The notes beneath the pieces were generated by a model. That model saw nothing but the letters and a program-made list of their open reading frames with translations. It had not been told where the DNA came from and made no database searches. The translations under genes were made by a program, and so were the position numbers. From the NCBI GenBank assembly GCA_017609225.1, contig JAFCEK010000004.1:1-41322 (forward strand): a stretch of 41,322 nt of DNA. The letters are read 5' to 3'. This stretch comes from Candidatus Aenigmatarchaeota archaeon (GTDB lineage: Archaea; Aenigmatarchaeota; Aenigmatarchaeia; QMZP01). Shown piece by piece: positions 675-27,264 of the stretch. How positions within the stretch are numbered: position 1 is the stretch's first letter; every line of letters starts with the position of its first letter.

Positions 675-1041
675 AATAGAACCATCTCTAATCTCTAATG
701 GTATAATATAATATACTACTAACTTTGAATTAAAAACATTTATAAGCCAAAAAAACAATAAATATACGTAAAAAATTTTTACAATGTTTTAAAATCGCGC
801 AGAAATAGAAGCTTTTAATTCATTGGGGGATGAATTAAAGCTTGGGGAATTAAATTGGTTCTGTCAATATTAGTTCTGTATATATATTTGCAAAGCTTAC
901 TTAAAAAGCTTTCGGCAAAGGAGCATGACAGCTTATAATGACTGAATCAGGCTGTTTAAGCTTTAAAGTGGAGGTGTTAGAAAGCCCTCTCCACTTGCAT
1001 AGCAATGTGAGTGGATGGCTAAATAAGTGGAGGTGTGATAT

Positions 1042-13554: not shown

Positions 13555-13919
13555 GGTGTGCTGTGCATAGCCCCCTTTTTGTCATCTCCTGGGATTTTAA
13601 TCCCAATGGAGGTGATAGCATTTGTCTCTGCACCTTTGCCCGGAACTGAATCCGGGTGTAGCTTGCACCCCGCAACACCAAGCATTTTCATCTGCCGTCT
13701 TTTTCTCAGCTCGCTGGTTTTACTCTGTTGCCAGAGGGTTCCCAGCTCAATGCTCCGAAGCCGGAGTTTTTTTCTGTTCTTGATGTAAGCTTCTCAGCTT
13801 CCGCCTTCCGGCGGTGCGTTGCCCATAAAGCAATGGACAGGTGAGGGGAGCTTCCTCTCCAGCCAGGAACCTGCCCGCAAGGAGCCGGACCGGAGGAGAA
13901 ACTATCTGCACAGCTCACC
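13555..13919 (-). ncRNA. rnpB: structured ncRNA of about 365 nt, probably RNase P RNA (alternative: SRP RNA)
   Basis: The 5' GGUGAGCUGUGC pairs with the 3' GCACAGCACACC. There is a CR-I-like GAGGAAGCUCC, a GGAA-capped hairpin CGCC-GGAA-GGCG and GCAACAGAGUAAAACC. AGAUGAAAA and a 3'-proximal GCAGAGACAAAUGCUAUCACC resemble the conserved RNase P motifs AGAUGAAU and ACAGAA..GGCUUAUC. Confidence 0.5.
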
Positions 13920-14046: not shown

Positions 14047-14214
14047 ATTGGTCGCCTGTCTTTTTTTAGCTTTCGTAAAGAGAGGCTTTAACAAGGACAT
14101 GTCAGGGATTAGTAACCGTGGGTTGAATATCTCGCCGAAGCTTGATACTTACGCCCCGGTCCTATCAGCCCGTCGTCTACGGGACCTTCCTCTTCGCACC
14201 GCTAATGGCAGCAG

Positions 14215-14242
14215 AACTGCCTGTTAAATCAGCATTAGCAGT
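14215..14242 (-). repeat. mini-insertion family B copy (degenerate)
   Basis: aactgcctgttaaatcagcattagcagt is similar to the copies at 14556 and 16808. Confidence 0.5.
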
Positions 14243-14555
14243 ATCTGCAGTTGCCTAGCAGTTTGAAGAATGATTGCCTAGTTTTAGGGACGGCTTCAAG
14301 CTTAGTTAGGCCCGGAAGAAATATATATACCTATTCGTTCTGTATTCTTACCTTCTTCTGGTATGCCTTCAGCTTATGGACAGCAGACAACCCGTTAAAC
14401 CAGAGTTATGGCTGTCATGCTATTATCCGTTATGGCGTAGCTACCCGGCGATGCCTATGACAGCAAGACAGCTTATATATAACCAGGGTTGCTGTCAGGC
14501 TGTTTTCACAACCGGTACACCAGAGGCCACGATTCCTCGTTCCTTTTATACCGAG

Positions 14556-14585
14556 GACTGCCTTGTTAAACCAATATTAGCAGTC
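14556..14585 (-). repeat. mini-insertion family B copy
   Basis: gactgccttgttaaaccaatattagcagtc, with terminal stem GACTGC/GCAGTC. Confidence 0.6.
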
Positions 14586-14856
14586 ATACTCGTTCGTACT
14601 GAAGGAACCTTCCCCTCAGGCATTGTAGGCAGACTTAGGTCAGTATTCAATCGCATTTGACCTAAGTCAAGCTATCTACACCCCCAGCAGATAAAGACCA
14701 TACTGGCTTGTGCCGCGGCTTGGACATTTTTAGAGCTAATTCTAGTCGAATAGCTCTTAAAGACTGCAACATTTGGTGTTGTGTCCAAACCACGTTCGCA
14801 CCGTATTTAACCCAGTTAACGTGGCTCTTTGATGAGTGAACACCTCCACCCTTTCG

Positions 14857-15615
14857 TCAGTTTAAGCGACGAATAAAATTTAAAACATCAATTTGATTCT
14901 TGAATGATTTCCAAATATCCGGTTTCACTTGATATGTTTTTAGTAAAACATCCAAAACCTTGTTTTTTTCATAACCTTTCCAATAAAGACTCTTATCAGA
15001 AACTTTCAAATTGTTTACAAATCTTATTTCCTTGGCAAATTTGTATAAATCATTTTTTGTGTCTATTGCTATTGATGAATCCCATTCTTTTGTATTTATA
15101 TCAAGTTTTTGCTTGAGTAAATTTCTGTAAAATTTTCTCAAACCAGGATGAGAGCATTTTAGTATTACCCTTCTTGTTAATTCCCATTTGTTGAATCTTT
15201 TATGCCATTTTACGCCCAATACAACACCTCCATCAGCTGAAAACATCAATTTAAAGACTTCTTTCAGTTCATTTCTTGTTAATTCTTTAAAGATGTCAAG
15301 CTTTATTTTGGGGTATGTAATTGGATATGTTTGAAGTGATTTTGTTTTCAGTGTATTGCAGAGGTTTACTAAAATTTCTCCGGTTTCTTTAGAGGAATAT
15401 TGTGTAATCTTAACTCCTTTATTATCTATTCTTTCATAGAAATTCTTTAAACCGAATAGTCTTTTCATGAGATTTCTGAAGATTTTATGTAATTCCTCGG
15501 ATTTCCCTGCATATATTATTCTGTAAGTTCTACTTCCAAACCTGACGCTTCCGTCTGTCAATAAAAGTCCTATAAGATTTGCTAAATCCTGTTTATTGAA
15601 ATTTTTTAATTTCAT
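14857..15615 (-). CDS. LAGLIDADG homing endonuclease (double-motif)
   Basis: Motifs LIGLLLTDGSV and FKLMFSADGGV. The ORF lies inside the 23S gene. Confidence 0.9.
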   Translation of the reverse strand: MKLKNFNKQDLANLIGLLLTDGSVRFGSRTYRIIYAGKSEELHKIFRNLMKRLFGLKNFYERIDNKGVKITQYSSKETGEILVNLCNTLKTKSLQTYPITYPKIKLDIFKELTRNELKEVFKLMFSADGGVVLGVKWHKRFNKWELTRRVILKCSHPGLRKFYRNLLKQKLDINTKEWDSSIAIDTKNDLYKFAKEIRFVNNLKVSDKSLYWKGYEKNKVLDVLLKTYQVKPDIWKSFKNQIDVLNFIRRLN

Positions 15616-15728
15616 GTTTTATTTTTAGGGAAGCGGGCTTATCTGATTTTTAGGCGCAAGCCGACCTGCATTAGCAGGTAAAATCAGAATATGCCCGCTG
15701 ATTTTTCCTTACTTGTCGCTTAAACTTT
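14857..15728 (-). other. 23S rRNA intron 1 (about 870 nt) carrying a LAGLIDADG ORF, in domain V
   Basis: A 12-bp terminal helix (agtttaagcgac at 14859-14870 with gtcgcttaaact at 15715-15726) brings the ends together. Flanking exon sequence resumes as ..GGCUCUUCCUGGACGUGCAGCAGCGUCCAAAG and GACGAAAGGGUGGAGGUGUUCACUC. Confidence 0.6.
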
Positions 15729-15786
15729 GGACGCTGCTGCACGTCCAGGAAGAGCCGAACCGACGGCGGAGAAGCATTGTACTGAA

Positions 15787-15816
15787 GACGGCTTCTTTCA
15801 ATCTGCACAAGCCGTC
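15787..15816 (-). repeat. mini-insertion family A copy
   Basis: gacggcttctttcaatctgcacaagccgtc, with terminal stem GACGGC/GCCGTC. Confidence 0.6.
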
Positions 15817-15973
15817 ATACATATGTACGAGGTCGATTTATCCTGCCTCTCTACTAATTCATCCGAACATATAGTTCGCCATTAGCCAATACCTACTTCT
15901 ACCGACGAGAAGTGTGGCGTATGGACTCTCGCCCGCCACGACTCCATTATCCCCAGGATAGCTTTTTCAGACC

Positions 15974-16003
15974 AACGGCTTTTTTCAATCTATCCAAGCC
16001 GTC
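15974..16003 (-). repeat. mini-insertion family A copy
   Basis: aacggcttttttcaatctatccaagccgtc. The loop is homologous to the copy at 15787. Confidence 0.6.
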
Positions 16004-16807
16004 ATGTGTTTTCTGACAGAGCAGGCCCCCATTATCAGCATAACCGCTTTTTAAACCAGTGTAAACGGCCAAGCTATTAATGAGGCACTGCGGATCGCTA
16101 GGCCACGCTTTCGCGTCAGGATTTCTTACTTTCGGAAATCCTATCAGGCTGGCTTTTGCCCTTACACTCTCTTCGAGATTTCTGACCTCGATGAGCCAAC
16201 CTTAGGGCGCTCCTGATATTAAGCGGCTGCTAAAGCTACAAACAGAGGCTTTAGAAGACGTATCTTATTAGGAGCGTACCGCCCCAGTCAAACTACCCAT
16301 CTGCCGCTGTTTCCGGCCGAGGCCGGATGAGCGATAAAGAAACGATAGGTTGGTGTTACACTTACGAGAATGGACAGCTTTTTTCAGTCAATGGAAGCTG
16401 CCATACTTTTCGCATTCCCCAGACCTGACGACCTGGGTTCGGCGCTCCCAACTACTCTATACAACCATTTCTTTATCACAACAACAGACTGTAGTAAAGT
16501 TCCATGGGGTCTTCGAGTGCCTGACTGCTTATTTCATTCATTACAAACAATCTGGCTTTCTCGTCCCGCTGAGGGTCTCCTGAGTATGCACAGGACAGTT
16601 AATTTCACTGGGTATCAGCCCGAGACAGTGGGGATCTCGTTAAGCCATTGATGCAGGCCGACAATTTCGACCAGAAAGACGACTTTCATATGCTAGAACA
16701 AGTCGTCAAACTGATAATCGGCAAGGGATTGCGCAACGGCTTTCTTCATCCTTTTTGTCAGATGACCGTCATTACGCTACCTTAAGACGGTCAGAGTCTG
16801 CGGCACA

Positions 16808-16835
16808 GACTGCCTTTAAACCAATGTTAGCAGTC
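16808..16835 (-). repeat. mini-insertion family B copy
   Basis: gactgcctttaaaccaatgttagcagtc. Confidence 0.6.
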
Positions 16836-18007
16836 ATGTGATACCGCCGGCGTTTATCAGGGCTTCATCCGGTTGAATCCGGACTTAACACACTGACACT
16901 GGCCAGGCCTCAAGAGCCATACAAGGCATTTCTGCTTAGCGGCTCCCTAAGTTTTTATTAAACAGTCGGACCCCCCTTGTTACTGAGACCTACCCTTCCC
17001 AACTTAGTCAGGAGAGTAGGCATCCCTTCTACCAAAGATACAGGACCAATTTGCCGAATTCCTTGGGCTGATTTCTCCCATTCACCTTCCCCCTAAAGGC
17101 CAATACAGCCTAACGGCTGGTTCTGGCTGTCTGACTTTCTCAGGGAGGGCACCATTCGCCGAAACCTTTCCCTTTTACATATTTCTTTCCAGAGATTTTT
17201 GAGAAAGGTTTAGTGACGGTTCTCGGTACGGATGAAAGAAATCCTTACCAGTTCCCTTTGTGCAGAACAACAGCCTGCGCTATTGAATCGGCTGTCATAA
17301 CCTTTTCACGGGTTCCAGGAATCAACCAAACCTCCTAAGGGAGGCCCTCACAACTTCACCTGTTTTGAGGCCCACGGCATTTATTCAGTAAACCAATGCC
17401 GGAAGCTTTCTCGCCATTATGGCACTCCACAGGCTTGATTGCTAGGATACAGCGAACTGTACAAGGTCTATCCCGAAACGTCAGGAACTGGTCCTGCGTT
17501 GCCGCACGTATTCTTTCAGGGCAGGAATATTAACCTGCTTCCCTTTCGGCAAACTCCATTCCTAAACCAACTGCTAGTTGCATTAACAGTGGGTTTGTTA
17601 GGGTTTGCCTTAGGACCGCCTTAGGCTGGCAATAGGAATTTATTTACTCTGGTAACATAAGCTTCCTAGAGCCATTAACCCTCAGCTGAATCGACCAGAA
17701 GCGACATATAAAAATAGTCGCCATGCTGTTAATCGTTGCTGAGGAACCCTGGCCCTGTACCTTCAAAGACGGCTTTGTTCAGCCAGCGTTAGCCGTCAAT
17801 TGATTTAGGTGGCTGAGATTTTCACCCAGCTTTCGCTGCTACTATCAACAAGATTCTTGTTTTCATGAGGTCTACCCGAACTCACATTCAGGCTTCTGCC
17901 CCCATGAAACACCTCCCTACAATATTCCGGACACAGTCCGGAATTCAGGGTCTCGGTAGCGCATTTAGTCCCATCCATTCTCAAGGCTCCCAACCTCGGC
18001 GGGTGAG

Positions 18008-18634
18008 CTATTTTGCGGCCAAGATGCCGATTTTTCTTTTTTTGGAGGGATTGAAAATTGGTATATTTTTTATGAAATTTTTATTGTCTTTTTTTGATAC
18101 CCTAAGAACAAATCTTGGATAATTCCCATTTTTATTTTTATATATTCCAACATTTCCTGAGCTTATATTTAATTTCCTAAGAAGCCTTTTTATATCATTT
18201 AAAGGTGGACATTCTAAACCATTCCAGGACAGATGAAATCTTATCTGATGTGTTCTTATATCAAATCCACCCTCAGCATCCCAAAAACCGCCTATGTACC
18301 ATTTAATAATTTCTTTATTTCCCGTATCCATTAAAATCTTCGGGGTTTTCCAGGTAATTTGTGATTTCAATGGATGATCAAATTCTTTCTGTATTTGTAT
18401 TGCTATTTTTTTGGAGTAAATTCTTAGATATGGCGTTCCTTTTCTAGGTTTACAAAATATTTGATTTCCGCTGAACGTTTTTTTCAATAGTTTTGATAAA
18501 AAATTCAGCCATTTTGTGTCTTTACTGTAGAAAGTTATATAATGGTGAATTTTTCCTTGTTTGTCACTATATCTAAGAACTGAACCATCTCTAAGTGCTC
18601 CAAGCAAATAGGCCAAATTTTTGGTGAGCTCCAT
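18008..18634 (-). CDS. LAGLIDADG homing endonuclease (double-motif)
   Basis: Motifs LAYLLGALRDGSV and IGGFWDAEGGF. The stop TAG is formed by the first exon nucleotides (UAGCUCAC). Confidence 0.9.
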   Translation of the reverse strand: MELTKNLAYLLGALRDGSVLRYSDKQGKIHHYITFYSKDTKWLNFLSKLLKKTFSGNQIFCKPRKGTPYLRIYSKKIAIQIQKEFDHPLKSQITWKTPKILMDTGNKEIIKWYIGGFWDAEGGFDIRTHQIRFHLSWNGLECPPLNDIKRLLRKLNISSGNVGIYKNKNGNYPRFVLRVSKKDNKNFIKNIPIFNPSKKRKIGILAAK

Positions 18635-18679
18635 AGTACTATTTTATTTGATTACTTAAATGTTTAACGGCATCCTGAC
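18011..18679 (-). other. 23S rRNA intron 2 (about 670 nt) carrying a LAGLIDADG ORF, in domain II
   Basis: It splits ..GCAGCCAUCAUAUAAUGAGUGCGUAA | UAGCUCACCCGCCGAGG (compare E. coli AGCGUAAUAGCUCACUGG). The ends carry an inverted repeat, ggatgccg/cggcatc. Confidence 0.6.
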
Positions 18680-18988
18680 TTACGCACTCATTATATGATG
18701 GCTGCCTCTAAGCCAACGTTCCCGCTGTCTGAGGTTGAAAACGCTTTTCCTCACTTAATACGCAATCCTAAAACGACTGCTAAAACTGTTGCAAGTCTGC
18801 TTTGCTAACAAAGCAGTCCTTTCACTGAATTAGCAGACGCTTTTTTAGGGACCTTAACCCTGATCTGGGTTTTCACCCTTTCGGAAAACGAGCTTACCCC
18901 GTTTCCGCACTCCCAGCTTCTGTGATGGTAAGGTATTCAGAGTTTGACAAGGCAACTGGGGAATGAGAGCTTGACGGCTTAAAATAAT

Positions 18989-19099
18989 GTTGCCTCCGTG
19001 TATCCGCCTACTAAAGCCGGCGGTTTTCTTGGCGAGGCAACAGCTGTTGAACCAGAACCATACATCCACTGTTTGAAAACAATGGTTTTCTGGTTCAAC
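18989..19099 (-). mobile_element. 111-nt structured insertion element, copy B (in 23S), flanked by ATAAT direct repeats at 18984-18988 and 19100-19104
   Basis: About 90% identical to 10710-10822, in the same orientation relative to the host transcript. It is nested in the loop of a GACGGCTT...AAGCCGTC mini-insertion (18973-19118). Confidence 0.8.
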
Positions 19100-20507
19100 A
19101 TAATTTATGCAAGCCGTCGGAGCCTTTTCTCCCCTTGGTTACCTAATCAGTAGCTCTACCCCCTTACCTGTCTCAGCTGAGGCTGAACTTAGGTTCATTT
19201 CGGGAGGAACCAGCTATCACCCCACTCGATTAGCCTCAAAACCAGCTGCTCCTGCTGTCTGGTGCAAGCAGCATGGTATTTTTACCCCTAGTCCCAGGTC
19301 ACGCAAGCGATTTGCCCACCGGCTGCCAATGCTTGGCTTTAGCAGCCGGTTTTGAATCTCAGCAATGCTTCGGGCCTCCATCCCGGTTTCCCGGGACTTC
19401 ACCCTGCCCAGGACTAGATCGTGGGGTTTCGGGTCTCATCCCTGTGACTCGGGCGCTTTCACACCCAACCGCCTTGCCGAAGCTGCGCGGTCTTTGCTTT
19501 CGCTACGACTGGTTTCCTTAGTCTCGCCACAGAAATGAACTCCTTGTCGCGTGTTTCAAAACGGACGATATAACCCGACAACCGGCTCTCGTACCAGGCC
19601 CTTGCGGGCTTTCCTTGAACCGGATTTCTGCAGGCCATATCTACCTGTAGCTGCATGGTTTCAGGTTCTTTTAATGTCGCAAAGCGATATTGCTGACACA
19701 GCTCGTAAACTATCGCTTTCCGATTTCATCTCCTGTTAAGGATGCTTTTCAGCTTTCCCTCACGGTACTAGTGCGCTATCGGACTCAAATTATATTTAGG
19801 ATTGGGAGTTATTGTCTCCCGTATTCCTGCTGGATATCCGACCAGCAGTACTCTGGCACTTAGTAAGGTTGCCTGATTACAGTCACAACAAATTCTTTAT
19901 GACTATAACTATTTGGCCTTACTAAGTGATACATGGTATCATCCTTCTTCCGTTCTCCTACGGGGCTGTCACCCTCTATGGCACTGCTTTCCAGCAGACC
20001 TCGGATTGGGAAGTTAGGAAGAGCCCAGTTCCAAACCCCACATCCGCACAGGCTTTCGCCAGCGCGTTCGGTTTGTCCTGTTCCCTTTTCGGTCGCCCCT
20101 ACTAAGGGAATCGCAATACATAACCATTAAATGGCTATGTACTGTTTTGCTTTCTTTTCCTGCGGTTACTAAGATGTTTCAGTTCACCGCGTGCTCGCTT
20201 GCTGATGCAAGCGTCCAAAAGGACGGGAAGTCCTATCCGAACTGACTGCTAATATTACGAAGTTTTATCTGTATTAGAAGTCAGTTATTCGGTAATCCCG
20301 GGTTCAATGCATGCCTGCGGCTACCCCGGGCTTACTGCAGCTTGCCACAACCTTAAAGAGCAAGACAGCCAACTGGAGTTAATTGCATAGTAACCCAAGC
20401 TGTCATGCCTTTCTTCGATATTTGAGCCAAGCCATCCACCATACAGCCTTGCTGTCCTTATAACTAACCCCTGCCTTACTCAGTTTGTAAAGAAAGGGTT
20501 TTTTGTC

Positions 20508-20521
20508 AGGATAACCCGCCT
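20508..20521 (-). other. 5' strand of putative pre-23S processing helix
   Basis: Complementary to 14033-14046. Confidence 0.4.
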
Positions 20522-20955
20522 ATGAATATCATATGAAAGAGCCCTTTGCAGTCATCTGCAAAGTTGTCATTTGGTGTTCTCAGCATTCACCGCCTCTGGG
20601 CAAGGCTCATACTGGGACAGTAATAATGCACAAGACCACTATTCCAGCAAACTATCAGCTTGCTATTTAAGTGGCCAGGCGCTTCAATCATCCACAGCTC
20701 CTTCTCATATCCTTCCACCATCTGAAATGGTGAAGTTCATATGCAGTGCATACAGTGAGCATTACAATATTGAACTTCAACTGCCCAGAATCAGAACTCC
20801 ATATAGAGTTTGTTTTGGAATCGCTTCCTAGCTGCTAACCACACATTCTGCCACAATGCATGACCGACTCTGAACAGCTGTTGCCTCTGATAAGCGTTTG
20901 CACGCTGTCAGACCGCTAAACAGGTGTTAACGGCCTGTAAGGAACCTTTGTTGAA

Positions 20956-21103
20956 TGGACTGGGTGGGATGCCCATACCAATCTTGGCTGGTTCCTTTCA
21001 GGTTAAGATTGGTATTTTGAACCCACGGCCTCTGCCTTGCAAGGGCAGCGATCTTTAATGGCACCCGGCAGTCACAGGGAAACCACCACTGATCTACCAG
21101 CCC
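20956..21103 (-). tRNA. tRNA-Ala(UGC) in the 16S-23S spacer, with two non-canonical introns
   Basis: Exons assemble to GGGCUGG UA GAUC AGUGGU..AAA GAUC G CUGCC CUUGCAA GGCAG AGGCC GUGGG UUCAAAU CCCAC CCAGUCC A. The G3:U70 Ala identity pair is present. There is a D-loop intron at about 21057-21084 and a 59/60 intron at 20970-21015 with an 11-bp internal stem. Confidence 0.85.
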
Positions 21104-21160
21104 GTAAAAGGGTTTAGACCATCTGATACAGCCAGTATAGTGGTCATACCTTTGGTATTA

Positions 21161-21175
21161 TGTGGTTATTGAGAC
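21161..21175 (-). other. 3' strand of putative pre-16S processing helix
   Basis: tgtgg-ttattgagac pairs with gtctcaataa-ttt-ccaca at 24595-24612, giving 15 bp with one 3-nt bulge. The two strands bracket the 16S gene. Confidence 0.45.
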
Positions 21176-21194
21176 TTAAATATTTAAGGTTTAT

Positions 21195-21237
<43 letters not shown>

Positions 21238-21809
21238 TATCGGACAACGAGATGATTATAGATTCTCCTGAATGGTTTGTGTGTTGCACTTTTATGTCAT
21301 TCTATAGCAAAGCTATAGTCATATTGCCCATCTCGCCGTCTTACGACTTAGCCCACCTTGCAGAACCATGACTTGATCTCACCAAAATGGTGAGAGCTCG
21401 CCAAAACTGCAGACCGGCTGCTAATACCATCAAGCAGTTTTTGCTTGTTTTAGCAGTCAGTTTTCCACTCGGTTGGCTTGACGGGCAGTGTGTGCAAGGA
21501 GCAGGAACATATTCGCCGCTAGATTCCACAGATAGACCGCTTAGAACAAAAAATGCAGTCAACCTATGATGACCAGCGACTATTCCCCAGAAAGACTGCT
21601 TTGCCAAATCAGAATCAGCAGTCAATCTACTAGGGATTTCGGCTTCATGAGGGCGGGTTACAGCCCTCAATCTGGACTGGGGTTGGTTTTGAGGATTAGC
21701 TTCCCTTTCTGCGAAGCAGGCAGCCTGAACAATCATTATAAGCTGCCATGTCTTTCAGGGTCGCATCCCATTCCACAGCAAGATGGCTTTGTTTAGCCGG
21801 AATTAGCCG

Positions 21810-22520
21810 TCATGCTTTTGTACCAACCATTGTAGGCCGCGTCTGGACCCAAATTGGCAAATTTTGGGCTTTCCTGATTTTATCAGGGTGATTAAATCCG
21901 ACATTCTCCAAGTATTTTTTGACTTTTTTAAATCCAATAATTTGAAAACCAAACATGTTTTTATATTTCCAGATGCTTGGATTTACCCCAAATCTTTGCA
22001 ATAGTTTGACAATATCATCTCTTATAATTTTATTTGAAACATGGAATCCAATTCTTGGATATGTATAAGTTTTATTGGTTCGTTTAACCTTTTTGATAGT
22101 TATCCAACCTTCTGAATCCATCCATCCTCTTAAATATTCTTTTATTGTATCATTTGATGAACTGAAGATTGGTTTCGGCGTCTTCATAAAAAAGGTCTTA
22201 TCTTTTGTTGGAATTTGTAATTTTTTGTAAATTTCAACGGCTTGTTTTGAGCAAAGTCTTGTCCTGTAAGTTATTTTTCCTTTCTTTGTTTTCAAACTAG
22301 AAATCACTATCCTGCCTTGAAATAATTTCTCTAATCTTGGTTTAATTATTTTTTGATGGAACTCAAGGCATTTGTCAGTTATTGAAATCCTATATTCTCT
22401 TGATTTTGGATTTTCTGTAATTGCTCCATCACCACCAATAAGACCTATTGTATATGCAAAGATTGGAGTAATTGCGGTTTCGGTTTCGTTTTTATCAAAT
22501 TTTAATTTCATTTGAATCAC
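21810..22520 (-). CDS. LAGLIDADG homing endonuclease (double-motif)
   Basis: Motifs AYTIGLIGGDGAI and LRGWMDSEGWI. The last roughly 14 codons read through into 16S exon sequence. Confidence 0.9.
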   Translation of the reverse strand: MIQMKLKFDKNETETAITPIFAYTIGLIGGDGAITENPKSREYRISITDKCLEFHQKIIKPRLEKLFQGRIVISSLKTKKGKITYRTRLCSKQAVEIYKKLQIPTKDKTFFMKTPKPIFSSSNDTIKEYLRGWMDSEGWITIKKVKRTNKTYTYPRIGFHVSNKIIRDDIVKLLQRFGVNPSIWKYKNMFGFQIIGFKKVKKYLENVGFNHPDKIRKAQNLPIWVQTRPTMVGTKA

Positions 22521-22705
22521 CGATTAAGCTAGCAAATTTTCCCCTGTTCTTTTATGTATTGATTTTGGAAGATAAAAGAACAATAGGGATGGGCTGTATT
22601 GGGCGATTCAATATGCTGGTGTTTAAAACGAAACCGTTTACCCATTTGCCAATCTGGTGTATCCCAGCGGATTCAGAGCATTGCCGATCTTCACTGATAT
22701 AATCA
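21851..22705 (-). other. 16S rRNA intron (about 855 nt) carrying a LAGLIDADG ORF, just 5' of the GGGCUACACGCG..CUACAAUGG block (around E. coli position 1200-1215)
   Basis: Upstream exon is ..GACGGCAGGUCCGUAAAUCUUUAC and downstream exon is GGGUCCAGACGCGGCCUACAAUGG. The boundaries are approximate. Confidence 0.5.
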
Positions 22706-24141
22706 GTAAAGATTTACGGACCTGCCGTCGACCGCTCCTTCCTCTGGCTCATCGCCAGCGGTCCCCTATGAGTACTGGACCTCAAAAGAAGCCCGTGGTA
22801 ACATAGGGCGCGGGTCTTGTTCGTTACGACACTTAAGTCGACACCTTTACCGAAACCTTTTCTTCGGCTTTTCGCTAAAAAGGCTTTCACGGCACGAACT
22901 CTATCGTCCTGAAAGGACTCAGCTTCTGAAAGTTCCTTTCAAGATGACGACGGCCATGCACCACCTCTCAGCTTGTTTGGTAAGACCATCAGCCTGACCT
23001 TCAGTTCAGGTTGACTGCCAATGCAGTGTGCAGTCTGCTATGATAACACAGCAGTCTTATAACCGCATCAGCAGACAAACTTTCTGCTGTCGCCGCTGGT
23101 AAGGTTAAAGGCCGACTGCTAAGACAATACACGAACTGCTTTAATACCAAGCAGTCCCTTAGCCGTTTTAGCAGTCAGACTTTCCTCGCGTTGAATCGAA
23201 TTAAACCGCAGCCTCCACCCCTTGTGTGCTCCCCCGCCAATTCCCTTAAGTTTGATGCCTTAGGCATAACTCTCCGGCTATGCTGAAGATTCATCCTTGC
23301 GAACGTACTCCCCAGGTGGCCCGCTTAACGGTTTTCCTAGGACTCTGGCAACCCCCTTAAGATTGCCAATGTCTAGCGGGCATTGTATCCGCAGACTGAC
23401 GACTATATATAAGTCGTCTGTCTTTTACGGCTGGGACTACGCGGGTATCTAATCCGCTTCGCTCCCCCAGCTTTCATCCCTCACCGTCAGATCCGTTCTA
23501 GTCGAGCGCCTTCGCCACTCGCCTGAAAAGAGCTGTCTGGCTTGTTTCCGGTAAATCATGCAGCTCAAATCATCAGGCGGTCTTCCAGGGATTATAAGAA
23601 TATAAGCCTGTTCTTTTCTTCCCCTAAAGGGTTTCTTTAGAAAAGAGGGCTTTTTACCCTTACCCCTGGAATACCCTCGACCTCTCCCGGTCTCAAGTCC
23701 TGCAGTATCCCCAACAAGCTCCATAGTTAGCTATGGAATTTCATTAGGAACTTGCAGGACCGGCTACGAATGCTTCAAACCCAATAAAAATGGTCACCAC
23801 TTGCGGCGCGGGTATTACCGCGGCGGCTGGCACCCGTTTGGTAGCCCTGCTGCTTATATAACGATTCAAGCAGTTAAGGACTCTTACCCACCGCTTATTC
23901 GCTGAGCTTTTTGGACTCAGCAAAAGCTCCCTCAAAAAATGAGAAAGCACTCCAAATCCCTCCATCACGCTTTTACACCACCCCGGCTTTGTTTTCATTA
24001 TAACATATTGCATCTATCAAGCCGAAAGTGCTCGCGCATTGTGGAATTTTCGCGCTTGCTGCGCCCCGTAGGACCTGGATTCATGTCTCAGAATCCAACT
24101 CCGGGCTTCCTCTCTCAAGGCCCGTACTGAATCTATAGCAC

Positions 24142-24171
24142 AACTGCTTATTTCAATCTGCCAAAGCAGCC
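24142..24171 (-). repeat. mini-insertion family A-like copy in 16S
   Basis: aactgcttatttcaatctgccaaagcagcc shares the ttcaatct loop core with the 23S copies. Confidence 0.5.
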
Positions 24172-24442
24172 ATGTTTTATAGCCTCGCCAGGAATGTAAA
24201 AGAACAGCCCATTCAATATATACGGGCTGTATGCTCTCTTTACCCTGGCAACAAGCTAATCAGCCGCAGTCTTATCCTTGGGCGCCGAAGCTTTGGGTAA
24301 TAAAACATTCCAGTATTTATTACCTGTCTGGTATTAGCCCCAGTTTCCCGGGAATGGACAGAAAGACGGCATTATACAATTAAAAGCCGTCAGACTTTTA
24401 TCCCAGACCCAAGGGCAAATTAACTACGTGTATCCAGCAGAA

Positions 24443-24471
24443 GACAGCCTGTTCAATCAAAAAAAACCGTC
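24443..24471 (-). repeat. mini-insertion family A-like copy in 16S
   Basis: gacagcctgttcaatcaaaaaaaaccgtc. Confidence 0.45.
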
Positions 24472-24594
24472 ATCTGTTACTGAGCGATTCGCCGAGCTTG
24501 CGCTCTGACTTGCATAGCTTAGTCGGATTCGGATAGCAGTGACCTCCGGCGGGATCAACCGGAATTTGTGGCGGGTTTGTCCTCCTTAGAAGGA

Positions 24595-25148: not shown

Positions 25149-25174
25149 GTATAAAGAATTATTAAAGATACTGT

Positions 25175-25461
25175 GCGGGGGTACCCAAGCGCCTTTTTCC
25201 ATGCGAATATGCAAGCGCCAGGAAAAGAATTGGGAATGGCCAAAGCCCTGCGGCTACAGGGGCAGGACTTAAGCTGCTGGCTTAAGTGCTTTGAGAAACC
25301 TCTGGGTTTCAGTGAAGAAACAATGCCCTAAGAAATCCTGTGGCTTAGAGGCTCCCTCATGTAAATGAGGCTGCCAGGCAATGCCTTCGCGAGTTCGAAA
25401 GGCTGACGGCTGGCACTGGCTGAACAAGGCCGTAGCAGTTCCGGTTGTCTCGCCCCCCGCA
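25175..25461 (+). tRNA. tRNA-Leu(UAA), class II, apparently with four introns
   Basis: Acceptor GCGGGGG/CCCCCGC plus A73. D-stem CCC/GGG (25184-86/25259-61). Anticodon arm CAGGA CUUAAG..A UCCUG, variable arm GGC-AAU-GCC UUC, T-arm GCGAG UUCGAAU CUCGC. The extra sequence lies at four sites: the D-loop (about 25191-25248), 37/38 (25274-25334), the variable region (about 25342-25376) and 59/60 (25400-25447). Confidence 0.75.
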
Positions 25462-25496
25462 TAAGATTTATTTGGCCTAAAGCAAAGGATGAGAGC

Positions 25497-26222
25497 ATGA
25501 AAATCGGAATAAAGATATACAGGCCCGAAAGGGATTATCTGAACAGAATCCTGAAGCATGTGGATTTTATAGAGGTTATGGCTGTTGAGGGGGAAAGCTA
25601 CAGGCTTCTTGAGGGAATTGATATCCCTTTTGTAATACATATGGAGCATTATAATTTTGGTGTGAATCCTGCAAACCCTTCCCTGGAAAAGAGGAACAGG
25701 AAGGCACTGGATTTTGCCTTGTCCCTGGCGGACAGGCTCAACTCGGAAACTGTGATAATGCATCCCGGATTTCTGGAAAACAAAAACTGCTCTGAATCCC
25801 ATTCATTAGATTTCATAAGAAACATCCTGGACAGCAGGATAATTGTTGAAAACATGCCCTGCAGGTCGCTGGGCATTGGCTTAAGGATTCTTGCCAGCAC
25901 ACCAGAGGATATGAAAAGAATGATGAAAGAAACAGGCAAGGGCTTCTGCTTTGACTTTGGCCATGCAGGCGCTGCTGCATGCTTCCTGAAGAAAGACCAT
26001 GTAAAATTTGCAGGGGAATTCATGAAGCTGAAGCCAAGGCATTTCCATGTTTCTGATGGAAAAACAAATATTCCAAAGGATATGCACCTGCATCTTGGCG
26101 ATGGCAACCTGAACCTTGCAGCATTCAGAAGAATGCTGCCAAAAAATGCATGGGTCACGGTGGAAACAGGAAAGGAAAGCATTGAGAAGCAGATAAGGGA
26201 TATTGAATTTATGAGGGGTTAA
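25497..26222 (+). CDS. xylose isomerase-like / AP endonuclease 2 family TIM-barrel protein
   Basis: VIHMEH, VIMHPGF, IVENMP, CFDFGHA and HFHVSDG motifs. Its 3' end overlaps the convergent sigma gene by 14 nt. Confidence 0.65.
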
Positions 26223-27264
26223 CGGCTTCTGATGGCTGGAAATCTATAAACCCTTTCAGCTTTCCTGCTCTTTCAGGATGCCTCAGCCTTTCCAGCGCCT
26301 TTATCTCTATCTGCCTTATCCTCTCTCTTGAAAGGCCAAAAATTTCTCCTATTTCTTTTAATGTGTATCTTTCCCCTGTATAACAGCCATCATCACCAAA
26401 GGTGAGGCCGTATCTGAGCCTTATTATCATTTCCTCCATTGGGCTGAGTGTAGGCAAAATGCCTTCTATGGTCTCTCGGGTCATGTTTCCATGCGCTTCT
26501 TCTGGTGGACTTGGAGATTTTTTATTTTCAACAAACTCGCCGAATGGGGACTCATCATCTCCTCCATGCATATCCAAGTTTATAGGATGTTTCATTATTC
26601 TTCTTAATCCCGCTACTTCACTTACAGGTATTCCCATCTCTCTTGCGATGTTCTCATCAGTTGCTCTGCCCTCCACAGCCAGTTCCCTTTCAGTTCTTCT
26701 TAACATGAAAAATTTTTCTATTATATGAGAAGGTATCCTTACTGTTCTTGCATTGTCTGATAATGCCTTGGTAATTGCATTCCATATCCAGTGTGCAGCA
26801 TATGTGCTGAATTTGTATCCTGTTTCCGGCTTGTATCTCTCCACTGCCAGGATAAGGCCTGTATTTCCCTCAGCTATAAGGTCAAGAAAATCCAGTCCTT
26901 TGCCTCTGTATTTTTTTGCTATTGAAACCACAAGCCTTTGGTTTGATTCTATCATTACTTTGTAAAAAATTTCATATTCATCAAACAATTCCCTGATGTT
27001 ATCATATGCCTCAAGGAAATGTTCGGGAAAATCCCCCAAATCCGGAAGCAGTTTTTTGTATAGTTCCATGGCTTCCTGCATATCTTTTAATTGCCTGCAT
27101 CCTTTTAGCGAATCAGCATAAGAGCCAAATTCCGGGTCATTATAAATCATGCGGAGAAGCATGGATGTTGGATTGAAATCTTCCATTAAACCCCTTAGTT
27201 CTTTCTGGCTTTTCTTTATTTCTTTCCTTTTCTTCTTTGCTCTTTCTGTATCTCCACTCTCCAA
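26209..27264 (-). CDS. bacterial-type RNA polymerase sigma-70 family protein, regions 2-4 (the frame is open upstream to 27390)
   Basis: Close to RpoD across its length. Region 2: [61 protein letters not shown]. Region 3 start: [13 protein letters not shown]. Region 4.2: [31 protein letters not shown]. The track start is TTG. Confidence 0.85.

Follow-up and report, generated by a model that had tools for sequence, protein, structure and literature searches.

At least 53 predicted bulge-helix-bulge introns in one rRNA operon of a DPANN archaeon

Archaeal introns bearing the bulge-helix-bulge (BHB) motif are usually viewed as rare, with one in some tRNAs and a few in the ribosomal RNA (rRNA) of some hyperthermophiles. 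In the Thermoproteales, about 230 introns have been described from about 115 16S genes at 13 loci, and these include short (<50 nt) hairpin BHB introns as well as introns with LAGLIDADG genes (PMC4496867). Such introns are excised by an endonuclease and the exons are ligated by RtcB (PMC4496867). Here we describe the rRNA operon on the minus strand of contig JAFCEK010000004.1 (GenBank assembly GCA_017609225.1, Candidatus Aenigmatarchaeota archaeon), of which positions 1 to 41,322 were analysed; this whole stretch of 41,322 nt is called the window below. Its 16S and 23S genes contain a large amount of extra sequence, which we read, with a probability of about 87 per cent, as archaeal BHB introns in very large numbers: the 16S gene would hold at least 20 of them and the 23S gene at least 33.

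The 16S gene runs from 24565 to 21196 (minus strand, 3370 nt) and has a full-length match to the Rfam SSU_rRNA_archaea model (model positions 1-1478, 609.9 bits). The 23S gene runs from 20462 to 14090 (minus strand, 6373 nt), as delimited by long-gap alignment against the large-subunit (LSU) rRNA of a relative, the 'Nanoarchaeota archaeon' metagenome-assembled genome (MAG) L008. The Rfam LSU_rRNA_archaea match starts at 20463, and its 3' end, at 15630, is misplaced because the covariance model loses alignment at an 875-nt intron; the last ~340 model positions fall beyond this intron, with the gene running on to 14090. Compared with the 1474-nt small-subunit (SSU) rRNA of the haloarchaeon H. 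mukohataei, long-gap alignment gives 24 inserts totalling 1926 nt, and compared with the 3153-nt LSU of L008, 35 inserts (8 nt or longer) add up to 3236 nt. These measurements bear out an earlier note on this DNA, which had put the genes at about 3.37 and 6.4 kb, the excess at about 1.9 and 3.4 kb, and the share of three LAGLIDADG introns at about 2.4 kb (there are three Pfam LAGLIDADG_3 matches, in introns totalling 2360 nt). Its figure of at least 25 short insertions pointed in the right direction and was too low as a count, with about 50 short BHB-compatible inserts found.

The operon has at least 53 BHB-compatible inserts, of which the 16S gene accounts for at least 20 and the 23S gene for at least 33. 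Fifty of the 53 predicted introns are short (34-163 nt), and insert lengths peak sharply at 44-48 nt; the remaining three are long (816, 669 and 875 nt), each with a LAGLIDADG open reading frame (ORF). The insert map was built by aligning the genes pairwise, with long gaps allowed, against L008, a haloarchaeon and E. coli, and the E. coli (Ec) positions given here are approximate to a few nucleotides. The Rfam alignment was rejected as an insert map, having put a 57-nt insert inside the 515F string, which is intact at 23833-23815 (minus strand), and having forced the LSU 3' end to 15630.

Under the BHB rule that we applied, exon nucleotides -6 to -3 pair with intron nucleotides -6 to -3 counted from the intron 3' end, a 3-nt bulge follows each strand of this central helix with the cut after its second nucleotide, and an inner helix starts from intron nucleotide 2. 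At the tightest setting (4/4 central pairs, at least three inner pairs, exact length and a positional tolerance of at most 2 nt), 25 of 58 inserts fit, compared with a mean of 0.36 and a maximum of 2 in 200 random placements of equal lengths elsewhere in the window. When the tolerance is loosened, 37 of the 58 fit, and 6.3 would be expected from random placement. A strict BHB at the alignment-defined length with at least two inner pairs is present in 32 of the 58 inserts; beyond these, sixteen have 3/4 pairs or an irregularity of 1-2 nt, two were parsed by hand and three lie at sites occupied in L008, for a total of 53. Inner helices measure 2-14 bp and begin at intron nucleotide 2 in the strict set, with some copies needing an offset of 1-2 nt. 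The bulges are mostly A-rich, and AA^A is the commonest on either side (a caret marks a cut or a splice junction). A generic bulge-size scan was discarded as too noisy, and the random-placement control and a test on pairs of relatives were used instead.

Many of the short introns also resemble one another. A repeat search of the window returned eight copies of a 33-nt unit, and about 22 short introns have in common the RNA-strand consensus AUGAC(G/U)GCUU, ~14 nt, AAGC(C/A)GUCUU, an 8-bp stem in which the middle pair covaries (GACGGCU/AGCCGUC, GACUGCU/AGCAGUC, GGCAGCU/AGCUGUC). A covariance model made from nine hairpin copies (R1; matches counted at E < 0.1) found 13 further copies on the operon RNA strand, and all 22 coincide end to end with independently delimited inserts. 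Outside the rRNA it found two, at 922-962 upstream of ftsZ and at 25400-25440 in a tRNA gene missing from the annotation.

The predicted introns of the 16S gene are listed with the two strands of the central helix (H/H') where these were assigned, followed by one further insert of this gene that is outside the 53; 'family' denotes the shared hairpin.

24432-24477, minus strand: 46-nt intron at ~Ec119, H/H' UCAG/CUGG, family; strict BHB, R1 19.9 bits
24354-24397, minus strand: 44-nt intron at ~Ec152, GGAU/GUCC, family; strict BHB, R1 24.7 bits
24194-24237, minus strand: 44-nt intron at ~Ec265, GUAA/UUAC, family (weak); hand parse, R1 14.6 bits
24132-24176, minus strand: 45-nt intron at ~Ec282, inner helix 11 bp, 1 extra nt beside H', family; hand parse, R1 40 bits
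23973-24031, minus strand: 59-nt intron at ~Ec381, GCGC/GUGU; strict BHB
23838-23882, minus strand: 45-nt intron at ~Ec511, directly 5' of the intact 515F/530-loop string, GGUA/UACC; strict BHB
23600-23651, minus strand: 52-nt intron at ~Ec696, GUAA/UUAU; strict BHB, site also filled in L120, L098, L086 and L149
23518-23573, minus strand: 56-nt intron at ~Ec722, CGCC/GGCG (CACC/GGUG in relatives)
23252-23289, minus strand: 38-nt intron at ~Ec908, GAUG/CAUC; strict BHB, at a listed Thermoproteales intron locus (PMC4496867)
23105-23181, minus strand: 77-nt intron with two hairpins at ~Ec978, GAGG/CUUU; parse, spliced junction ACGCGAGGAA^CCUUACC as in E. coli, R1 18.4 bits
23004-23081, minus strand: 78-nt intron with two hairpins at ~Ec1008, central helix 3/4 pairs; relaxed BHB
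22901-22945, minus strand: 45-nt intron at ~Ec1066 (h34), GUCG/CGAU, inner helix 11 bp; strict BHB
22847-22887, minus strand: 41-nt intron at ~Ec1079, GCCG/CGGU, inner helix 10 bp; strict BHB
22681-22714, minus strand: 34-nt intron at ~Ec1204, central helix 3/4, inner helix 12 bp; relaxed BHB, adjoining Thermoproteales locus 1205 (PMC4496867)
21843-22658, minus strand: 816-nt intron at ~Ec1226, LAGLIDADG ORF 21810-22520, GGAU/GUCC, inner helix 14 bp; strict BHB, with a 791-nt intron at this site in L008
21771-21817, minus strand: 47-nt intron at ~Ec1251, family; relaxed BHB, 3/4 pairs, R1 45.2 bits
21582-21630, minus strand: 47-49-nt intron at ~Ec1346, family; central helix 4/4, inner helix 4 bp, R1 44.1 bits
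21524-21566, minus strand: 43-nt intron at ~Ec1363, UCAU/GUGG; strict BHB, site also filled in L008, L120, L149, L098, L086 and L124
21401-21461, minus strand: 61-nt intron at ~Ec1430 (helix 44); relaxed BHB, 3/4 pairs
21237-21341, minus strand: 105-nt intron at ~Ec1499, splitting the 1492R site (spliced junction AAGUCGUA^ACAAGGUA), GUCG/CGAU, inner helix 13 bp; strict BHB
21706-21751, minus strand: insert of ~46 nt outside the 53, family hairpin, BHB register would leave 4 extra nt; R1 17.2 bits

The predicted introns of the 23S gene are given in the same way, again followed by the inserts outside the 53.

20353-20410, minus strand: 58-nt intron at ~Ec53, GAAG/CUUU; strict BHB, R1 14.6 bits
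19854-19926, minus strand: 73-nt intron at ~Ec369; central helix 4/4, inner helix 9 bp
19671-19724, minus strand: 54-nt intron at ~Ec503, GAUG/CAUU; strict BHB
19313-19350, minus strand: 38-nt intron at ~Ec751; central helix 4/4, inner helix 11 bp
19235-19278, minus strand: 44-nt intron at ~Ec784, UAAA/UUUG; strict BHB
18963-19125, minus strand: 163-nt intron at ~Ec886, GAGA/UCUC; central helix 4/4 at the exact alignment boundaries
18765-18843, minus strand: 79-nt intron with two hairpins at ~Ec1011, CCUA/UAGG; strict BHB, paralogue of SSU intron 23004-23081 (73 per cent identity over 64 nt in the repeat search)
18012-18680, minus strand: 669-nt intron at ~Ec1095 in the GTPase-centre loop (spliced junction GCGUA^AUAGCUCAC), UGCG/CGCA, inner helix 12 bp, LAGLIDADG ORF 18008-18634; strict BHB
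17757-17804, minus strand: 48-nt intron at ~Ec1301, ACCU/AGGU, family; strict BHB, R1 44.6 bits
17690-17729, minus strand: 40-nt intron at ~Ec1328, CGAU/GUCG; strict BHB
17621-17675, minus strand: 55-nt intron at ~Ec1342, GGGU/GCCU; strict BHB
17559-17596, minus strand: 38-nt intron at ~Ec1366, CCUA/UAGG; strict BHB
17364-17407, minus strand: 44-nt intron at ~Ec1531; relaxed BHB, 3/4 pairs, inner helix 4 bp
17155-17212, minus strand: 58-nt intron at ~Ec1617, CGUC/GGCG; central helix 4/4, inner helix 11 bp, 1 extra nt
17093-17136, minus strand: 44-nt intron at ~Ec1635; relaxed BHB, 3/4 pairs, inner helix 5 bp
16798-16841, minus strand: 44-nt intron at ~Ec1912 (H69 region), GCGG/CCGC, family; strict BHB, R1 26.8 bits
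16729-16771, minus strand: 43-nt intron at ~Ec1932, GCGU/GCGC; central helix 4/4, inner helix 6 bp, site also filled in L008, L088, L127 and L149
16666-16714, minus strand: 49-nt intron at ~Ec1952, CGAU/GUCG, family; strict BHB, R1 41.8 bits
16512-16557, minus strand: 46-nt intron at ~Ec2060 (A2058 region), spliced junction GACGAGAA^GACCCC (GAGAA^GACCCC), CGAG/CUCG; central helix 4/4
16363-16408, minus strand: 46-nt intron at ~Ec2164 (L1-stalk region), family; relaxed BHB, R1 42.7 bits
16225-16268, minus strand: 44-nt intron at ~Ec2266, boundaries the least certain; relaxed BHB, 3/4 pairs, inner helix 4 bp
16032-16075, minus strand: 44-nt intron at ~Ec2407, AUUA/UGAU, family; strict BHB, R1 26.8 bits
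15965-16010, minus strand: 46-nt intron at ~Ec2433, UCAG/CUGA, family; strict BHB, R1 42.7 bits
15838-15920, minus strand: 83-nt intron at ~Ec2477 (H89), GUCC/GGAU, 108 nt at this site in L008; junction GAGAGUCCAU^AUCGACC as in E. coli and the haloarchaeon
15777-15822, minus strand: 46-nt intron at ~Ec2504 (peptidyl-transferase centre), GUAC/GUAC, family; strict BHB, R1 45.7 bits
14853-15727, minus strand: 875-nt intron at ~Ec2541, LAGLIDADG ORF 14857-15615, CGUC/GACG, inner helix 12 bp; strict BHB
14708-14795, minus strand: 88-nt intron at ~Ec2598, GUGC/GCAC, inner helix 13 bp; strict BHB, with a 777-nt intron at this site in L006
14623-14673, minus strand: 51-nt intron at ~Ec2632, GUAG/CUAC; strict BHB
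14546-14593, minus strand: 48-nt intron at ~Ec2660 in the sarcin-ricin loop (spliced junction AGUACGA^AAGGAAC), GUAC/GUAU, family; strict BHB, R1 42.8 bits
14455-14503, minus strand: 49-nt intron at ~Ec2706, GUGA/UCAU, family; central helix 4/4, inner helix 4 bp, R1 19.1 bits
14376-14422, minus strand: 47-nt intron at ~Ec2726, GGAU/GUCC, family; strict BHB, R1 15.8 bits
14306-14362, minus strand: 57-nt intron at ~Ec2754, AGGC/GCCU, 37 nt here in L008; spliced junction GCUGAAGGCAU^CUAAGC
14205-14249, minus strand: 45-nt intron at ~Ec2802, GGCA/UGCC, family; strict BHB, R1 19.3 bits
20224-20282, minus strand: insert of ~59 nt outside the 53, hairpin with no clean BHB register
17249-17294, minus strand: insert of ~46 nt outside the 53, family-like hairpin; R1 15.9 bits

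Relatives of the window provide an independent check on these junctions. A 24-nt signature around the changed SSU position C1400U retrieved 111 metagenome stretches, for which insert load was determined by local alignment against the window's spliced rRNAs. We then used five 16S pairs (one member with and one without inserts, at 94-98 per cent exon identity) in which the insert-free copy fixes the junction within 1-5 shifts. In this fixed register every one of the 30 inserts has a 4/4 central helix, with an inner helix as well in 29. At site 722, exon and intron have undergone a compensatory change between the window and its relatives.

Introns of this kind are also found in tRNA genes. The tRNA-Ala(UGC) in the 16S-23S spacer of L008 carries the family hairpin in its T-loop, at position 59/60, as a canonical hBHBh' motif: GUGGG - UUCG - AA^A - [AGCA U GACGGCUU ... 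AAGCCGUC UGUU] - UGAA - AC^U - CCCAC, with the T stem outermost. Cutting after bulge nucleotide 2 gives a normal 7-nt loop, UUCGAAU, and this register identifies the family hairpin as the inner helix of a BHB intron. Other identities considered for the hairpin (a K-turn, a box C/D-like protein site or a miniature repeat element) were dropped once the L008 intron had given the BHB register. Two tRNA genes of the window are interrupted as well.

20956-21103, minus strand: spacer tRNA-Ala(UGC), located by alignment to the L008 tRNA-Ala exons and missed by ARAGORN
25174-25472, plus strand: interrupted class II tRNA gene of ~300 nt, with perfect acceptor and T arms and several inserts

The spacer tRNA-Ala has a 46-nt intron (20970-21015) at 59/60, in canonical hBHBh' form (GUGGG-UUCA-AA^A ... 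UGGG-CA^U-CCCAC) with a hairpin other than the family consensus, and a 27-nt insert in the D-loop (~21055-21081). In the tRNA T-loop introns the outer helix is present, as the T stem. The class II gene has a T-loop insert of ~48 nt (25400-25447) that is a weak R1 match (23.8 bits) with a relaxed motif of 3/4 pairs, and ARAGORN calls the gene, as Ser-GCU or Leu, only once 4-5 segments in BHB register are removed. Directly upstream of the spacer tRNA-Ala, both in the window (21104-21150, minus strand) and in L008 (2330-2370), there is a family-like hairpin that, instead of being an intron, may belong to a processing site. The copy at 922-962 (plus strand, 31 bits) has a TATA-like box near 880 on one side and the ftsZ start at 1042 on the other, and is oriented as ftsZ is; no clean BHB was found at this hairpin, which may be a 5'-leader element or a stray copy.

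The positions of the inserts bear on whether they could remain in the ribosome. The earlier note had named four split conserved sites, and all of these are real: the 1492R site (21341-21237), h34 (22945-22901), the A2058 region (16557-16512) and GGUAAGGUU^CCUCGCG (23181-23105). The h34 string holds a second insert that it had overlooked (22887-22847, 41 nt). It had also allowed that the extra sequence might map to variable regions, and by E. coli positions the inserts sit in conserved cores. If they were expansion segments kept in the mature rRNA as surface helices, as in eukaryotes and some Asgard archaea, they would be extra helices at variable, surface-exposed sites. Every insert does fold as a hairpin projecting from its host site, and a few small ones without a convincing BHB lie where length varies among organisms (23946-23934, the 23421-23346 region, 20145-20116 and 14336-14317). 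These few further inserts (13-30 nt), which are without BHB geometry, are probably true variable-region length variation and not introns. Only this handful fits the description of an expansion segment, and most inserts are instead within universally conserved strings. Among the places interrupted are h34, the h44/h45 junction, the 1095 loop, the sarcin-ricin GNRA loop and, in the peptidyl-transferase centre, the 2060 and 2504 regions; with extra hairpins there, the binding of factors and tRNA would be expected to be blocked. Conserved-core sites, a BHB register far above chance, insert-free copies in close relatives with exactly the predicted junctions, and canonical BHB introns in the T-loop of tRNA-Ala here and in L008, the latter with the shared hairpin, all support the earlier note's view that most inserts are spliced introns at an extreme density. 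Retention as surface helices is, on the same evidence, very improbable.

Removing the 20 predicted SSU introns leaves ~1545 nt, and removing the 33 predicted LSU introns leaves ~3117 nt. The predicted junctions match E. coli, haloarchaeal and L008 rRNA and the conserved strings are rebuilt, as in GGCCGUCGUC^AGUUCGUGCCGUG^AGGUGU across SSU 1066 and 1079 and GAGUCCAU^AUCGACC at LSU 2477; the spliced sarcin-ricin loop is identical to its counterparts in L008 and L006. Bases have changed at several 'universal' positions (21479-21497, 15740-15775, 14700-14830 and 14540-14600, minus strand). These changes include SSU C1400U, a GAAA in place of the GAGA sarcin-ricin tetraloop (G2661A) and, in the peptidyl-transferase centre, CUCCGCCGUCGG where CUCGAUGUCGG is usual (A2503/U2504 region), and the A-loop/H92-93 region is divergent. 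Changes of this sort might be expected of a dead operon that had been colonised by a miniature repeat element, with a working operon elsewhere; a family of hairpin repeats exists and has a copy beyond the rRNA, at 922-962, and our view is limited to one contig. However, the changes recur in L008 (L006 shares the sarcin-ricin loop only), and the LSU of L008 scores 2502 bits and has almost no inserts. They are traits of the lineage and not signs of decaying exons. The spliced LSU aligns with that of L008 end to end at 78 per cent identity with few indels, and the inserts, unlike random insertions, retain helices complementary to their exons. The same pattern recurs in many independent metagenome contigs, and the operon has kept its position beside the pyruvate:ferredoxin oxidoreductase (PFOR) genes and the RNase P RNA gene as in relatives. 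We give a pseudogene very little weight.

For the intron reading, the proposed mechanism is the archaeal one. At each intron, 4 nt of the 5' exon pair with 4 nt near the intron 3' end, a 3-nt bulge lies at either end of this helix, one on each strand, and the remainder of the intron forms the hairpin of the inner helix. The tRNA splicing endonuclease would cut after nucleotide 2 of each bulge, and an RtcB-type ligase would join the exons and circularise the intron. Three of the predicted introns still have LAGLIDADG homing-endonuclease genes, the other 50 being hairpin-only, and the outcome of splicing would be mature rRNAs of ~1.5 kb and ~3.1 kb with intact functional centres. Fragmented rRNAs occur in bacteria and organelles, and ligation is a step that we infer here; the inserts could instead be excised and the exons left apart, in the manner of bacterial intervening sequences removed by RNase III. 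Yet 53 cuts would yield ~55 pieces, many of them 13-30 nt long (e.g. between 22901/22887 and 17690/17675), and their assembly is unlikely. The inserts have the geometry of the endonuclease-plus-ligase pathway, and at every archaeal rRNA and tRNA intron known this pathway rejoins the exons (PMC4496867). Moreover, the tRNAs with the same introns need ligation to work, and we consider a fragmented rRNA highly unlikely.

A further explanation is technical. Operons for rRNA are often misassembled in metagenomes, and the structure could be an assembly artefact or chimera. Against this, the exon order is fully colinear with reference rRNAs, each insert has precise, structured boundaries, and many metagenome contigs have the same kind of inserts; an artefact is scarcely credible.

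Several observations do weigh against BHB introns as the explanation. The strict hBHBh' form, with its outer helix, is missing from most rRNA copies, which have the relaxed HBh' form instead: among the strict 32, the outer exon-exon helix has 0-1 pairs in 24, two in 4 and three or more in 4. The relaxed form is not cut by known narrow-specificity endonucleases (PMC5829648), and with an outer helix of 0-1 bp in most copies a broad-specificity enzyme would therefore be needed. The splicing endonuclease and ligase genes are not on the contig. About 16 introns (roughly one-third of the junctions) fit only with 3/4 central pairs or 1-2 extra nucleotides, and four inserts have no assignable junction (21751-21706, 20282-20224, 20145-20116 and 17294-17249). 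BLAST among the introns gave only three significant pairs compared with none in shuffles, which is a modest relatedness, and the shared hairpin could be due to a constraint that the splicing machinery imposes and not to common descent. That the introns are spliced out and circularised and the exons ligated is deduced from sequence. Finally, with the view being one 41-kb contig, a second and cleaner rRNA operon elsewhere is possible.

The three LAGLIDADG inserts are, by their geometry, candidate BHB introns like the rest, with perfect central helices and inner helices of 12-14 bp. Their Pfam LAGLIDADG_3 E-values are 2.1e-13 (816-nt SSU intron), 2.5e-11 (669-nt LSU intron) and 1.9e-07 (875-nt LSU intron). 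No match to a group I or II intron at Rfam gathering thresholds was found anywhere in the window, and no close relative of the 16S LAGLIDADG protein was found in the metagenome collection. Two of the ORFs (21810-22520 and 18008-18634, minus strand) overrun the predicted 3' splice site, the first by 33 nt and the second by 4 nt, and exon sequence supplies their last codons or stop codon.

Among the metagenome relatives there are 0-22 inserts per LSU and 0-14 per SSU, from none in, for example, L150 to 14 in the SSU of L088 and 22 in the LSU of L089 and L107. The LSU of L120 spans 6.5 kb and the SSU of L143 spans 4.4 kb. R1 finds the hairpin family in L088, L127, L149, L141, L116, L098 and others. 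L008 has about five introns, and three of these occupy sites that are filled in the window too; six intron-rich relatives share 5-10 of the window's sites and have many introns where the window is empty. Because the intron sets lie at mostly different sites, intron positions appear to be gained and lost fast within the clade. From these comparisons we infer that the mini-introns spread and are lost quickly in the lineage, with the window genome at the high end of the range. Co-conversion of a short intron with a nearby homing-endonuclease intron has been described (PMC4496867), and could explain the few short introns beside long ones, though not most.

A more specific idea is that the short introns are an actively spreading 'introner-like' family, and we would put its chances at somewhat under even. 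Hairpin copies of ~46 nt would move into rRNA, tRNA and perhaps other transcripts, and each copy would gain, or be selected for, 4 nt complementary to its new 5' exon, with dozens of lineage-specific gains and losses over short distances. The AUGACGGCUU...AAGCCGUCUU hairpin would then be a mobility or recognition module and not a passive stem. If this is true, rRNA maturation would depend on the tRNA splicing endonuclease as an essential enzyme working at high throughput.

Many of the OBAT/OBEP records (L093, L096, L113, L114, L125, L152 and others) are 1.3-1.4 kb long, cover 16S positions 2 to 1512 exactly and are insert-free. Some of these insert-free records are 96-98 per cent exon-identical to insert-rich genes; they may stem from RNA, from PCR or from genomes free of inserts.

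Among the ordinary archaeal genes of the contig are ftsZ, those of PFOR subunits, one for an ATP-dependent DNA ligase and two for class I aminoacyl-tRNA synthetases. For the PFOR alpha subunit the nearest matches are in Candidatus Aenigmatarchaeota MAGs (64-72 per cent identity), and it is 65 per cent identical to that of L008. In L008 and L006 the rRNA operon is likewise upstream of PFOR, with the RNase P RNA gene between them in L006. From the PFOR similarity and the kept gene order, the host is a DPANN archaeon (Aenigmatarchaeota-like) and not a member of the Thermoproteales; its GC content is moderate, ~43 per cent.

13556-13918, minus strand: RNase P RNA gene, 76 bits, E 1.6e-21, below the Rfam gathering cut-off of 84

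This gene lies just downstream of the 23S, as in L006 and L011, and has extra blocks of 27-32 nt. On the other side of the operon, 1.6 kb from the 16S, there is a bacterial-type sigma-70 gene (26209-27264, minus strand, 351 aa) with Pfam regions 2, 3 and 4 and without region 1. The best database matches of this sigma-70-like protein are bacterial RpoD at no more than 52 per cent identity (names: Planctomycetes), with no close archaeal relative in the database matches. Exact-sequence look-ups of the window proteins matched no record.

Before such an operon could yield a ribosome, precise cutting and joining would be needed more than 50 times, several of these inside catalytic and factor-binding centres. 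If the splicing is real, this raises the upper bound on how many introns prokaryotic RNA genes carry, and the relatives with 0 to more than 20 introns per gene are a natural series for studying archaeal intron gain. The operon would be a natural example of introns spreading unchecked through essential RNA genes. There are practical consequences as well. Standard tools overlooked features here or got their limits wrong: ARAGORN found none of the tRNAs, Rfam misplaced the 23S 3' end and the RNase P RNA fell under its Rfam threshold. Since the 1492R site and other conserved strings are split by introns, primers across them are expected to fail on genomic DNA.

In the literature outside subscription journals, our searches turned up nothing on intron loads of this size in DPANN rRNA, and no report of at least 53 introns per operon, of a hairpin consensus common to rRNA and tRNA introns, or of clade-wide loads from 0 to dozens. 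The rRNA introns of the Thermoproteales resemble those of the window in their BHB junctions, their mixture of homing-endonuclease and hairpin-only introns and their conserved-core sites, and 16S sites 722, 908, 978 and 1204/1205 are shared or adjacent (PMC4496867). The placement of a short intron near an endonuclease intron (1204 beside 1226 in the window) is like the co-conversion case in Pyrobaculum oguniense (PMC4496867). The density differs, with about two introns per 16S gene in the Thermoproteales compared with at least 20 in the window's 16S and at least 33 in its 23S (PMC4496867). Introns at different sites in the window share a consensus, whereas those of the Thermoproteales reportedly differ too much from locus to locus for comparison (PMC4496867). 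The hosts are also unlike, hyperthermophilic crenarchaeotes on the one hand and a DPANN archaeon of moderate GC on the other.

Bacteria are not known to have the archaeal BHB splicing system, and this separates the window from the Candidate Phyla Radiation (CPR). CPR bacteria are, like the window's host, an ultrasmall and probably symbiotic lineage, and according to PMC11270868 their rRNA genes are made longer by inserts in conserved regions, some of which encode LAGLIDADG endonucleases. Archaeal group I rRNA introns occur in DPANN, including one Aenigmarchaeota LSU, and often bear LAGLIDADG genes; their sites LSU 1931 and SSU 1498 are close to intron sites of the window (PMC6125680). The window differs from these in having no Rfam group I match at gathering thresholds, BHB junctions on its long introns, and short introns that are too small for ribozymes. 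The transposed tRNA intron families of the Thermoproteales are similar in another respect, as very similar BHB introns occupy many positions in different genes of one genome, much as the hairpin family may do here (Fujishima et al. 2010, as summarised in PMC4090602). The pattern suggests gain by transposition, and non-canonical positions such as the T-loop are used there as here (PMC4090602). The Thermoproteales family is confined to tRNA genes, whereas the main targets in the window are the two large rRNAs, with tRNAs also hit (PMC4090602). BHB splicing is a known mechanism, and it is the scale and the dynamics that are new.

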